DNA of 64,000 nucleotides, from assembly GCF_013167455.1 (NCBI RefSeq), contig NZ_CP038328.1, one strand, 5' to 3'. Below, piece after piece: positions 41,301 through 47,300 of this stretch. The first letter of the stretch is position 1. Each line of letters opens with the position of its first letter. A program made the position numbers. This stretch comes from Escherichia coli O157:H7 (GTDB lineage: Bacteria; Pseudomonadota; Gammaproteobacteria; Enterobacterales; Enterobacteriaceae).

Positions 41301-44300
41301 CACTAATAGTATCAATGGATTGATATTATTAATGGATATAAACATGTAATAAGGATTTATTATGAACATTCAACCGACCATACAATCTGGAATCACCTCA
41401 CAAAACAATCAACATCATCAAACAGAACAAATACCCTCTACACAAATACCGCAATCCGAATTACCTCTAGGATGCCAAGCTGGATTTGTTGTTAATATTC
41501 CAGATGATATACAGCAACATGCACCGGAATGCGGTGAAACAACAGCTCTACTGAGCTTGATAAAAGATAAAGGTCTGCTCTCAGGGCTAGACGAATATAT
41601 AGCTCCTCACCTTGAAGAAGGATCCATAGGAAAAAAAACATTGGATATGTTTGGTTTATTCAATGTTACCCAAATGGCATTAGAGATACCTAGTTCCGTT
41701 TCAGGCATCTCTGGTAAATATGGTGTCCAGCTAAACATTGTAAAACCAGATATTCATCCTACATCAGGTAATTATTTTTTACAGATATTCCCTCTGCATG
41801 ATGAAATAGGTTTTAATTTTAAAGACCTTCCTGGCCCGTTAAAAAATGCATTAAGCAACAGTAATATATCAACCACTGCAGTGTCGACTATTGCATCGAC
41901 TGGAACATCAGCCACTACTTCGACGGTAACCACCGAGCCAAAAGACCCAATACCATGGTTTGGATTAACAGCTCAAGTGGTTCGTAATCATGGTGTAGAA
42001 CTTCCTATAGTCAAAACTGAAAATGGATGGAAGCTTGTTGGAGAAACACCACTTACTCCTGATGGGCCGAAAGCAAATTACACGGAGGAGTGGGTTATCA
42101 GACCGGGAGAAGCAGATTTTAAATATGGTGCATCTCCATTACAGGCAACTCTAGGGCTGGAGTTTGGCGCACATTTCAAGTGGGATTTAGATAACCCTAA
42201 TACTAAATATGCCGTTCTTACCAATGCTGCCGCAAATGCGCTTGGTGCTTTAGGGGGATTTGCAGTATCCAGATTTGCTAGTACAGATCCAATGTTAAGT
42301 CCTCATATCGGTGCAATGGTTGGGCAAGCAGCAGGGCATGCCATACAGTATAATACCCCTGGATTAAAGCCAGACACTATTTTATGGTGGGCTGGTGCGA
42401 CACTGGGGGCTGCCGATTTAAACAAGGCCGAGTTTGAAGTAGCTAGATTCACTGACTATCCTCGTATATGGTGGCACGCAAGAGAAGGAGCTATTTTCCC
42501 CAATAAAGCAGATATTGAACATGCCACAGGTGCTGATATACGCGCAATGGAAGAAGGTATCCCTGTTGGACAGCGGCATCCAAATCCAGAGGATGTGGTA
42601 ATCGATATCGAAAGCAATGGCTTACCACATCATAATCCATCAAATCATGTTGATATCTTTGATATAATCCAAGAAACAAGAGTCTAAGCTTTAACTTGTT
42701 TATTTTAAAATAATAGCTGAAATGGATGGCAGCTATTATTAATAAGGATTAATATATTTTTTCTAAAATACCCCACAAAATAAACACATCATAAAAATTC
42801 TAAATACACACACCTAATCTCAAAAAAAACAAACTTACTATTTGACTTGGATTATGTTTTTAATCCAATATTTTCCGACAACATCTCCACAGAAAAATGC
42901 ATTTACATAAAGACGCCTTCAAGTCATCTGAAACCTGCCAACCACAGACACCTTCTTATATTCTGGATGTCTGCGGCGTTTTTTTACAAATTACTGACAG
43001 CCAATACTCTCTCAGAGAAAAATATTTTAACTATCTTTTATAATGAAGTTTCCCTTGATAGGATCATAAACACATTTATCAGGACTTATAATCATTGATG
43101 CCGTTATTGGTTCTCGGGTCAGTGGATGATATGAGCCTTCACTAGCTAAACGAGAAAATGCATCAAAATCAAATAAGCAGCATACTGCCGAACTATCTGA
43201 ATTTTTGACAAACACTCCTTCTTCGGGTCTCTCTAGTGTAATTGGACACTGAATAGACTCTGGCGGGCACTGGAAATTTCCTGAACTAACAGGAAACTTA
43301 CATTGAGATATTTTGTCCTGAATACTCTCTTGCGATTGTGCTTCACCTGAGTCCGAAAGCATACTGAGCATCCTATCGCGAAGAGCTTCAGGGCCGTTAT
43401 TAAACCCATAAAGGAATAACTCAGTAAGCAATCCCCCACTACTGCCGCTGGATAGAAAACGCCCATCGGTTTCATTAAATACAATGCTGACAGTCTCATT
43501 ACCTAATGTAAACTCCCCTCGACCGCTAGATGCTACTTGAGCTCGAAGGACATTCAATCCATTAAAAATGAGCTTGATCTAATCTCCGAATTTAACGGCA
43601 TTATAAAACTCCCTATTTTAATTTAAACTCCAGACTTAAATAGCTTTAACAAACATCTGCCTTACATGACAACAAAAACCGGAGCCGGACTCCGGTTTTG
43701 TGAAGCTGTCGGGTTACTTCATCCCGCCAATATTTTCCCACGTCCCGTCAGCACGCAGGATTTGCAGCGGTCTTACCACGCACTGTATCTGCTTTTTATC
43801 CGCATCCAGTATCACCACCTGCGTGATTACCCTGTCCTGCTCCGGAATAATACCATTCTCATCGGACTCCAGGATGTCTGCCGGCCCCAGACGCAGTTGT
43901 GCTGTAAGTAACTCCCCGTCTTCACGGTCATCATGCTTTCCGTGCCCGCACAGACGCTGCATAAGTTTTTTTAGTATGTTCATGTCATTCTCCTGTTCTG
44001 CCTGTATCACTGCCCACTTCATCAAGCCCCTTAACATCCTGCCACGGCCCGTCACCAAACCTGACCTGCAAATGCTGAAAAAAACCCTGAACCCGTGTGG
44101 TATCTTTGGGGGCAAGAAAGGTCAGTCCGGTGATGAGCGCACCATCTGTACCCGGGAACCAGCCATGGCTGTTTGTCTCAATAATGCTCGCCGGCCCCAG
44201 ACGAAAACGGATTTGTGTCTCCCCCGGGTCGCCCTTCGGTCCCTGAGGTCCGGTTGCCCCCACCGGGCCAGCCGCACCTGTTTCTCCTTTCGGTCCCTGT

Positions 44301-47300
44301 GGGCCTGCCGGGCCTGCTGCCCCGGTGTCTCCCTTTGGACCCTGTGGACCTGCATTTCCCGTCAGACCGGTCTCTCCCCGCTCTCCCCTGTCACCTTTCG
44401 GCCCCTGCGGGCCTGCCGGACCAGCATCACCTGCCGGTCCCCGTTCGCCGGTTGCCCCTGCCGGGCCGGTGTCTCCACGCTCTCCTTTATCTCCCTTCGG
44501 CCCCTGAGGACCCGCGGGCCCCGGTTCCCCCTTTGGCCCGGGAGGCCCCACCACGGTGGGGATTCGGTTTACGGCTTCTTCCGCCGCTATCCTGCTTTGT
44601 TCCGCTGACTGTGCGCTTTCTGCTGACTCCCGGGCTTTTTCTGCTGCGGTCGTTGCATCCCTGGCTGCATTACCGGCTGCACTTTCTGCCGTCTTTTTTG
44701 ACAACTCAGCATCTGTTGCACTTTGTAATGACTCACTGGCTTTTTGAGCGGCCGCAGAGGCCGAGGACGAGGACGCCTCCTCTGACTGCTTTGCAGCGGC
44801 TGCACTTTCTGCCGCCTGCCGGGCTGACTCCGATGCATCCCCTGCTGAAGTGTCAGCATTTGCAGCGTTCTCTTCTGCCTGACTGGCTGATATGCCGGCA
44901 TTCCTCGCGGACGTCTCCGCCTCTCCGGCATTCTTCTTCGCCTCCTCAGCGTGACGCGCCGCTTCTTCCACCATCAGTTCAAAACGACGCAGTGCCTCCG
45001 GCCGGACGTCATCCTCCGACATGGCACCGAGAAAATCATTCAGCGTACCGGGTTGAGAATCTTCATACACGGTGATGGTCCCGGCATGTGACGGAGGAAA
45101 TCCCTCCACCAACAGAATGACGCTGTACTGACCGTACTCAACGTCCATGCTGTAACGTCCGGCTTCATCCGGATTTTCAGAGGCCACCGTGTTCACCACC
45201 ACCGTGCTGCTGGTTCGTCTGGCCTTCAGCACAATGGTGCAGTTCTGTACTGGTTTTCCTGTGCCATCTTTAAGCACGCCAGAAATTTTTACTGTCATAC
45301 TTTTCCACCAATAAAAAAAGCCCGCAGCAGTGACGCCACGGGCTTCAGGACAGTGTAACTTTACGTTTCCTCAAACGCAGTTCACCCCATAAGGTGGATG
45401 AACCTGCGTATCATAACAATATTTACAGAAGATAAATCGGCGTCTGTTGTCAGAAACGGTATCCGATACCAACAATAAATGCATCCGATCGCCAGTCGCC
45501 ACTACCGGAACCTTCATAAGCAAGGTCAATGGTCACGGATTCGGTCGGGTTAAACTGCACGCCAGCCCCCCACGCCAGAGACGTGTTGCTGTGGCGACCG
45601 TCATCACTTCCGGTCAGCACATCGTGCGTTTTCCCCTTGTTGTCAGTTACGCGGAGATAATCCCCGTAGAAAGTCGACACACGGCTGTAAGCCACACCCG
45701 CCATCGCATACGCGCTGAACCATTCATTCACGCGTACAGACGGCCCCGCCATCACGCTGAACCAGCGGTTACGCACGGAATCTTCATGCCAGCGGGTATC
45801 GCTGTAGCGCGTTTTTTGCTCATCCTCAGCATTGGCATAACTGAAGGACGTAATCAGCCCCAGCGCGTCCATAAACTCATAACGGTATTTCACGTTAATC
45901 CCGTTCAGATCATCACTACCGGGAACGTTCGTCGAGGCATGGAGATACCCCGCGCTCAGCGTGGACTGATGTTCTGCTGCACTCGCTGGCGTAGCAGCGG
46001 CGACCTGCCAGACTACTGCGGACAAAATAACAGCACATAATTTACGCATAATTACCTCTCGCTTTTCTGCAATAAAAAAGGCGCCATTTCTGGCGCCCGT
46101 ATCTGGGTTATAAAATTCAGCTAATCGTGATGCCTGCAGTGGCTTTCTTCATCACCACAACCAGCAAATCGCTGATACTTGCTGTGGGATACCAGTTATT
46201 TACCAGCCATGCTGACACCGAAAACTCCAGTGTCATGTGACCGTGACCGGCAGGCATATCAATAACACCACTGTAAATCAGCGTATTATCCAGCGCGGTA
46301 CGGTTATAAATTTCAGCACCGTTTTTCCGCACTATCAGACGGCATGAGGAGTAAATATCAGTATGCTCTTTCTCATGTTTAGCGCCGCTGAATGCCACCG
46401 CCGGAATAACAATCTGCCGGTCAAACGGCTGATCGTCATAAACCCTGACGGTAATGGTTCCTGATGGCCACCGCTCCGGTGCACGGGAGTCCCGGGGGAA
46501 AGCTTTGCCCACTGTTTTAACGAGATCGCCTTCAATCTGGTTCGCGGACAATTTTCCCAGAACCCGACAGTTCTCGTTAATCGTGACGTTGTTGAGCGTC
46601 CCGGAGTTCGCATTCACGTTACCGCTGATATCGGCATTTTTCGCCGTCAGCCGCCCGTCCGGTGTCAGGGAAAATGCCGGAGGATTACCGCCGCTGGTAA
46701 TGGTGGGAGCCGTCAGATATTTCAGGAACACTTCATTCATAAATATCTGATCGCCCTGACCAACAAACATCGGCTTTGTGTTGCCATTCGCAGGATTAAT
46801 CATCGCAATCCTGTCTGCCGCCAGCAGCACCTGACTCTGCATGCCGTCAGAGGTGTTCTCAATACCGGCACCGATACCCGCAATATAAAGGCGTCCGTCC
46901 TGCATCTGCTGCAGCTTCACTGCCCACATGCTGTTCAGGTTATTATTTGTATCAACCTGAACCTTCTGTATCTGCTGGATCGCTGCACTCTGGTCTTCCA
47001 GTTTCTTATTGACGGTCTGCGTGATTTCATTACTGACATCCGTGATGGACGTTCTGATTTCCGCCAGGTCAGGCGCAAGCTGACCGTTATCAATCTGAGT
47101 CCACAACTCCTGAGCCAGATGGGTTTTCCCTATCTCTCCTTTGAAAAAATCCAGGTAACCTTCCGCATCATCGCTCGCCCGACCGACAGCCTCCACGAAT
47201 GCCGATTTGCCAACAGTATTCACACTGCGGATATAAAAATAATAATCATGGCCCGGTTTGATATTGATACTGGCAGCTATCCAGTACAGCGCCGAGCCAA

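Follow-up and report, generated by a model that had tools for sequence, protein, structure and literature searches.

A catalogued collagen-shaft side tail fibre and an insulated Ail/Lom-family cassette in a lambda-like prophage of Escherichia coli O157:H7

A stretch of 64,000 nucleotides from Escherichia coli O157:H7 (assembly GCF_013167455.1, contig NZ_CP038328.1), hereafter termed the window, had been proposed to encode a collagen-like side tail fibre and a Lom-type outer membrane protein between positions 43985 and 46049. Both open reading frames (ORFs) are indeed present on the minus strand with exactly these ends, the interval extending from the last base of the stf stop codon to the first base of the lom ATG. 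The lom gene (45450..46049, minus strand) encodes a predicted outer-membrane beta-barrel protein of the Ail/Lom family with 199 amino acids and corresponds to ECs_1807 of strain Sakai. The stf-type side tail fibre gene (43985..45298, minus strand) encodes 437 amino acids with the EPclA architecture and corresponds to Sakai ECs_1808 and EDL933 Z6027. It is followed by a translationally coupled ORF of 89 codons (43714..43983, minus strand) for a stand-alone PfC-domain protein, the equivalent of Sakai ECs_1809. Upstream of lom lie lambda-type M, L, I and J genes, the last of which, the central tail fibre or host specificity gene (46117..49589, minus strand; 3473 nucleotides), is frameshifted. The gene order is J-lom-stf-small ORF, and its J-lom-stf part matches the late-gene order of lambda. 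Plus-strand ORFs at 43700-44608, 44215-45075 and 45447-46040 were dismissed as non-coding shadows, since the family matches all fall in minus-strand frames, and an Rfam search of positions 43000-46500 yielded no RNA family.

At the DNA level, positions 43600-46200 are 100% identical to ECs_1807-1809 of the Sakai prophage Sp9, to EDL933 and to many O157:H7 chromosomes. The Sakai annotation assigns these genes to 'prophage Sp9; lambda-like phage' and lists ECs_1807 as Lom, ECs_1808 as a tail fibre and ECs_1809 as a hypothetical protein. Of 5426 complete E. coli genomes, 685 contain at least 80% of this stretch, and a single genome may harbour as many as 18 copies, whole or partial. Judged by their sequences, both genes are already described genes of a lambda-like O157:H7 prophage of the Sp9/CP-933P type. 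ECs1808 (Sp9) and Z6027 (CP-933P) have been tabulated as EPclA proteins of 437 amino acids with a PCoil segment of 116 and a Col segment of 111 residues (Ghosh et al. 2012, PLoS One 7:e37872, PMC3368898). Since they are catalogued in this way and a paralogue was characterised in the same study, the finding is already in the literature. The gene studied here is the same gene, with 100% DNA identity to ECs_1808 and a PfN-PCoil-Col-PfC architecture that matches EPclA also in its segment lengths; it differs only in its flank, where J is frameshifted. The original prediction had overlooked this entry in the catalogue, together with the knob domain, the coiled-coil rod and the coupled 89-codon ORF described below.

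The fibre begins with PfN, the tail-docking or collar domain (amino acids 1-133; 44900..45298, minus strand), which matches Pfam phage_tail_N (PF08400) with an E-value of 1.1e-68. Its first 117 residues are 88% identical to orf-401 of lambda, the N-terminal part of Stf, which bears out the lambda-like N-terminus that had been proposed, and the domain is likewise matched by PDB entry 9e7m (amino acids 1-93 of Ur-lambda Stf; E = 2.1e-50). PCoil (amino acids 134-250; 44549..44899, minus strand) is a low-complexity rod rich in Ala (38), Ser (21) and Glu (15 of 117 residues). It is followed by Col (amino acids 251-361; 44216..44548, minus strand) and by PfC, a globular knob comprising amino acids 362-437 including an 11-residue tail (43988..44215, minus strand), which matches Pfam Phage_fiber_C (PF06820) over residues 363-426 with an E-value of 2.6e-38. 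At the sequence level the protein has the features by which EPclA is recognised, that is, PfN, a PCoil of about 116 amino acids, a single uninterrupted Gly-X-Y domain and PfC. In EPclA, PCoil lies between PfN and Col and is nearly devoid of Leu, Val and Ile (PMC3368898).

The original prediction had counted about 35 Gly-X-Y triplets. The motifs that it quoted are present and the segment matches Pfam Collagen (E = 2.7e-18), but a regular-expression count gives 37 uninterrupted triplets. Nor is the collagen run the C-terminal region of the protein, as had been supposed, since the 76 residues of the Phage_fiber_C region follow it. Proline occupies 18 of the 37 X positions, 22% of the residues are charged, and an internal DNA repeat of 45 nucleotides occurs twice at 44263-44353. 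Vertebrate collagen chains in the PDB match the stf product with E-values down to 4e-69, and with 37 glycines in register the run is not a product of chance. Among the IMG/VR loci (L004-L083) the shaft of otherwise near-identical fibres varies from about 20 to 38 triplets; a shaft of 37 triplets is the commonest, and 27, 36, 30, 26, 21 and 20 also occur. Variation in shaft length was likewise noted by Ghosh et al. (PMC3368898).

For the analysis of selection on the fibre, 31-32 distinct alleles were obtained from 34 full-length loci of 437 amino acids, drawn from 80 IMG/VR loci. Purifying selection acts on each of the four domains, with ratios of non-synonymous to synonymous polymorphism (pN/pS) between 0.11 and 0.43, and the last ten stf codons are invariant in 32 alleles.

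The PfC family is narrow. A profile search of 1.84 billion cluster representatives returned only 85 clusters, mostly fragments, too few for a deep alignment. When the PfC profile was compared with PDB sequences, only chance matches to an optineurin helix were obtained, with an E-value of 0.03. A likeness of the motif VRxxDGxWxxI at the end of PfC to the foldon hairpin of T4 fibritin was considered as well; it is unsupported by the profile search of the PDB and is not claimed. In a separate protein of 565 amino acids (P0139), Gly-X-Y runs alternate with four PfC-like repeats, a hint that modules of this kind may serve as collagen-registering knots in other proteins, too.

How such a fibre would work is suggested by its relatives. 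For the paralogue ECs2717, analytical ultracentrifugation, size-exclusion chromatography with multi-angle laser light scattering, circular dichroism (CD) and electron microscopy revealed a trimer with the CD signature of collagen (melting temperature 42 °C), a coiled-coil PCoil and a trimerising PfC, which forms a dumbbell of about 55-62 nm in electron micrographs (PMC3368898). In this paralogue, PfC is the domain that trimerises the chains and nucleates the triple helix (PMC3368898). In Ur-lambda, 12 copies of the N-terminal domain of Stf, contributed by four trimers, sit as a collar at the gpV/gpM junction, and flexible linkers connect them to a coiled-coil rod (PMC12617516). By analogy, the stf product would be a homotrimeric side tail fibre, the N-terminal domain of which would dock as a collar on the tail at the junction of tube and tip. 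The coiled coil and the ensuing collagen triple helix of 37 triplets would constitute a thin, hinged shaft with an estimated length of about 17 + 32 nm, based on a rise of 0.15 and 0.29 nm per residue, respectively. The PfC knob would trimerise the chains, set their register and nucleate the triple helix, and it is the likely point of contact with the host surface, where it may bind the receptor. The domain architecture, like the identity to catalogued genes, the synteny, the terminators and the purifying selection, is a result of the present analysis; the trimeric state, the collagen and coiled-coil conformation and the dumbbell shape were shown elsewhere for close paralogues and presumably hold for this copy.

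The comparison with Stf of lambda (orf-401/orf-314, with the chaperone Tfa) is instructive in this respect. Both fibres share the collar domain and the position after J and lom, and both would be trimeric with a proximal coiled-coil rod. In place of the distal gp37-like, OmpC-binding region of lambda Stf with its Pf2 repeats, the fibre studied here has the collagen segment and the small PfC knob, and the position of lambda tfa (Caudo_TAP) is occupied by the 89-codon PfC-domain ORF. In line with this, Pfam searches revealed neither Phage_fiber_2 nor Caudo_TAP in the fibre or in the downstream ORF. A second group of relatives, EPclB (Sp5 ORF67/ECs1228, Z1483 (L0121) of 933W and gp61 of phi24B), shares the Col-PfC end with 96% identity over amino acids 273-437. 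EPclB differs in that a Pf2 repeat splits its collagen segment into two runs, and in that it is borne by a podovirus tail. These short-tailed phages encoding Shiga toxin (Stx), with Stx2 phages among those that have the Col-PfC end, also carry an 89-codon PfC-only ORF, ORF68, downstream of the fibre gene. In Sp5, an anti-ORF67 antibody labels the tail ends, and the homologous fibre gene ORF67 is essential, while ORF68 is dispensable (PMC5155283). The same fibre module of 437 amino acids is moreover found in the viable phage 434 (92.9% identity) and in many records of Stx-converting phages.

The small ORF downstream of stf encodes a second Phage_fiber_C domain (amino acids 28-89; Pfam E = 4.7e-36), which is 34% identical to the PfC of the fibre itself. 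Its ATG is located 1 nucleotide past the stf TGA and is preceded, at a distance of 6 nucleotides, by its own Shine-Dalgarno sequence AGGAG (43990..43994, minus strand), which lies within the last stf codons and is invariant across loci. Public labels for this ORF conflict, ranging from chaperone and frameshifted alternate tip to hypothetical protein and dispensable reservoir. The record of phage 434 calls it a 'tail fiber assembly chaperone', a label that rests on position. The protein matches only Phage_fiber_C in Pfam and PHROG 576 'tail fiber protein', and searches of Pfam and PHROG gave no match to the Tfa family (Caudo_TAP). Moreover, the 89-residue protein is not an obligatory chaperone, because recombinant EPclA (rEPclA) trimerises without it (PMC3368898) and Sp5 still plates when ORF68 is missing (PMC5155283).

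Another view holds that the ORF does not specify a separate protein, and that it is either an alternative tip fused to the fibre by a +1 frameshift or a DNA reservoir for recombinational tip switching. The former is annotated in the record of phage AU6Stx1 ('alternate tail fiber tip ... +1 frameshift'), the latter was suggested by Mondal et al. for ORF68 of Sp5 (PMC5155283). With respect to stf, the ORF does lie in the +1 frame, which runs without a stop codon for 44-46 codons ahead of the ATG, and two rare chimeras exist, a collagen run joined to a PfC of the stand-alone type (P0062) and a leader of the 89-codon ORF joined to a PfC of the fibre type (P0123). However, the stf/ORF junction with its AGGAG-N6-ATG is identical in 78 of the 80 IMG/VR loci, and the frameshift would need to fall inside the PfC domain of the fibre. 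Mondal et al. found no frameshift signal (PMC5155283). The synonymous diversity of stf is not depressed in the overlap (pS 0.108 in codons 394-427 versus 0.128 in codons 362-393), and the peptide encoded in the alternative frame upstream of the ATG varies non-conservatively, which speaks against coding constraint in the +1 frame. At 34% identity the two types of PfC are also too dissimilar for homologous exchange. The 120 relatives listed, which come from E. coli, E. albertii or C. rodentium, are without exception small and stand-alone, and a pN/pS of 0.05 in the PfC part, compared with 0.39 in the leader of 27 amino acids, shows selection on the protein itself. On the grounds of junction conservation, overlap diversity and selection, fusion and reservoir were both rejected as the main explanation, and we consider them improbable.

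Judged from these sequence comparisons, the 89-codon ORF is a gene for a separately translated and selected protein, as opposed to an extension reached by frameshifting or DNA kept only as a reservoir. The protein could be a genuine second component of the fibre, which would cap or co-assemble with the PfC knob and thereby tune receptor choice or adsorption, with the gp38 or Tfa adhesins of other fibres as a model for such a role at the tip. We put this forward tentatively, as the tight translational coupling, the very strong purifying selection (pN/pS 0.05) and the confinement of the protein to phages of E. coli, E. albertii and C. rodentium are compatible with a tip component but do not demonstrate it. 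The ORF is followed by an intrinsic terminator (43674..43699, minus strand; -21.2 kcal/mol, z = -5.7) and then UUUUUGUUG. This element, missed by a consensus terminator scan, closes the tail operon, beyond which the effector island lies.

The product of lom matches Pfam Ail_Lom (PF06316) end to end (residues 1-199 of 199; E = 1.7e-122; a score of 407 bits where the curated cut-off is 23), PHROG 108 'Lom outer membrane protein' (E = 1e-104) and OMP_b-brl (E = 1.9e-19). Together with the phage_tail_N and Collagen matches of the fibre, this is the outcome that the original prediction had anticipated for a domain search, and neither ORF fell into an unrelated family. In the PDB, the protein matches 9wso, which includes lambda Lom as chain C of 206 amino acids (E = 1.8e-45), as well as OmpX and Ail with E-values of about 1e-18 to 1e-17. 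The ends, as read from the sequence, are a signal-like leader (MRKL...ASA|AE) and a C-terminal YRF. Over its full length the protein shares 41% identity with lambda Lom; the values for Lom of VT1-Sakai and of phage 434 are 96.5% and about 84%, respectively. With the Lom/Ail/OmpX/PagC family (PF06316), and lambda Lom in particular, it shares the full-length match, the conserved barrel and C-terminal segments and the position between J and stf, while it is 7 residues shorter than lambda Lom and differs from it in divergent loop segments. An NCBIfam model for 'resistance to complement killing' scores 115 bits on Lom, below its cut-off of 258 bits.

The lom gene is flanked by intrinsic terminators on both sides. 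The one between J and lom (46079..46098, minus strand) was found by the consensus scan as a hairpin with a T run and has a fold of -15.7 kcal/mol (z = -3.2); the one between lom and stf (45317..45346, minus strand), likewise from the consensus scan, comprises a 13-bp stem and a T run (-24 kcal/mol, z = -4.6). This layout is as expected of a moron. Lambda Lom is reportedly made in lysogens and has been linked to adhesion (PMC11888456, PMC8065619); strong expression late in infection has also been reported, as has a defence against lambda-vir on over-expression (PMC11888456). By analogy, the protein encoded in the window would be an eight-stranded outer-membrane barrel of the Ail/OmpX type in an insulated cassette between two terminators, probably present at low levels in lysogens and strongly expressed late in infection. 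At the cell surface it may act in adhesion, in blocking the adsorption of related phages, or in both. Lom is thus a plausible lysogen-expressed gene, and the proposal that it is a candidate for lysogenic conversion appears reasonable by family analogy.

Which of these activities prevails is a matter of competing views, one of which holds that Lom serves mainly in competition between phages, by adsorption block or superinfection exclusion chiefly late in infection, and not in adhesion or serum resistance. Over-expressed lambda Lom affords strong defence against lambda-vir and not against T7, and its strong late expression accompanies a proposal of kin-protective exclusion (PMC11888456). The lom alleles beside near-identical stf genes in the IMG/VR loci are consistent with such a role, as their identities cluster at three levels, namely about 100%, 80-90% and 40-55%. 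Their variability is highest at amino acids 11-50, 71-90 and 131-160, segments that we infer to be loops, and lowest at amino acids 51-60 and 181-199. The same authors, however, report that lysogen-level Lom gives no protection against lambda-vir under laboratory conditions (PMC11888456), lambda Lom has been reported to function in adhesion (Vica Pacheco 1997, cited in PMC11888456), and the protein studied here is only 41% identical to lambda Lom. We therefore regard a predominant role in phage competition as possible, though not as the likelier function.

The second part of the conversion proposal, that the collagen-like fibre is itself a conversion or virulence factor, is not supported. According to this view, the lysogen would express Stf, whose target would be the animal host, to which it might, for instance, adhere by mimicking collagen in the manner of the streptococcal Scl proteins. 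Collagen-like adhesins do exist in bacteria, and stf adjoins the type III effector genes nleG, nleA, nleH and nleF. However, the NCBIfam models for Scl2/SclB, Lcl and SclA match nothing but the Gly-X-Y part, with scores that fall far short of the cut-offs (e.g. 82 versus 325 bits). Moreover, Stf is devoid of a signal peptide, an LPXTG motif and a membrane anchor, and begins with the lambda tail-collar domain. Its homologues are annotated or were shown to be tail fibres, as in the case of Sp5 (PMC5155283), and the terminator of -24 kcal/mol separates stf from lom. Given these observations, a virulence function of the fibre is highly improbable. Because of the collar-docking domain, the J-lom-stf late order, the terminator between lom and stf and the trimeric fibre formed by a paralogue in vitro (PMC3368898), Stf is a late structural protein of the virion and not a lysogenic-conversion factor. 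It would be made only during lytic growth and would serve faster or broader adsorption of the phage rather than a phenotype of the lysogen.

Taken together, we are highly confident that the locus comprises a known collagen-shaft side tail fibre and an insulated Ail/Lom cassette of a lambda-like prophage. Several observations weigh against this interpretation. The biochemistry comes from the paralogue ECs2717, which is more than 90% identical, and not from this copy. A C-terminal domain closely related to PfC has been argued not to bind BamA (bioRxiv preprint 10.64898/2026.04.10.717836). An AlphaFold model of the knob, built as a Gly/Ser-linked mimic of three copies, reached a predicted local distance difference test score (pLDDT) of 37 and was unusable for fold searching, so that the knob fold stays a prediction, and an AlphaFold2 model of the 89-codon ORF from an alignment of 18 rows (pLDDT 56) was likewise too poor for a fold search. 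Both poor models are all-beta in the PfC part, in agreement with published CD data. As regards Lom, data obtained with lambda Lom may not transfer at the low identity of the two proteins, and no sigma-70 consensus site was found for lom on the minus strand at 46050-46400 at the threshold of the scan, which weak or non-consensus sites could escape. Finally, with J frameshifted in the window the fibre may never mount on a particle of its own prophage, and Sp9 of Sakai has defective head genes (PMC2669165).

The frameshift in J is a deletion of 1 nucleotide (CCC to CC) near 48481-48483 relative to the intact ECs_1806 of Sakai, and consequently the Pfam J domains are split over two ORFs in the window. 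The Prokaryotic Genome Annotation Pipeline (PGAP) flags J as 'frameshifted' in strain ECP19-598, in which the J region does not differ from that of the window. Since the J region is 95% identical to Sakai, whereas stf-lom is 100% identical, the locus is a mosaic. With J frameshifted, the prophage cannot build a working tail tip of its own. It might therefore be argued that stf and the 89-codon ORF are an inert relic here, kept by recent descent or by gene conversion among near-identical prophage copies. The up to 18 matching places per genome make gene conversion plausible, and frame-broken copies of stf exist in other prophages (EPclA*, PMC3368898); the defects in J and in the Sp9 head genes point in the same direction. 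Yet both ORFs are intact, and purifying selection acts across their alleles (pN/pS 0.05-0.43 at a pS of about 0.1). Despite its head-gene defects, Sp9 of Sakai excises and its DNA is packaged with the help of other prophages (PMC2669165), which implies that other phages may use its tail parts in trans or that recombination may carry these parts into functional phages. We thus hold an inert relic to be unlikely, and consider that the collagen-shaft fibre probably owes its relevance to the shared prophage pool and not to a particle of its own prophage.

Downstream of the fibre, the window contains an effector island at 37989-43557, with insertion sequence (IS) elements beyond it. It comprises an NleG-family ORF (43027-43557; the pseudogene nleG2-1 in Sakai), nleA/espI (41362-42687), an integrase fragment (39961-40701), nleH (38624-39544) and nleF (37989-38558). 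In addition, we observed a direct repeat of 140 bp with 92% identity between 39574-39713 and 43647-43785. The copy at 39574-39713 contains the last ~23 codons of another 89-codon PfC ORF together with its terminator hairpin and is located directly upstream of nleH. It looks like a recombination scar left by the exchange of effector cassettes at the fibre-distal end of such prophages.

With both genes catalogued and the fibre type biochemically characterised, the present analysis adds little to what has been described. Its bearing on the biology of these phages is as follows. Fibres with a collagen shaft sit on lambdoid and Stx phages, which move the genes for Shiga toxin and type III effectors among E. 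coli, and the receptor of the fibre as well as the coupled 89-residue PfC protein bear on the host range of these phages. The fibre should not be counted as a lysogenic-conversion gene. In a cell with a dozen related prophages, variants of Lom may have an influence on adhesion or on the exclusion of phages.

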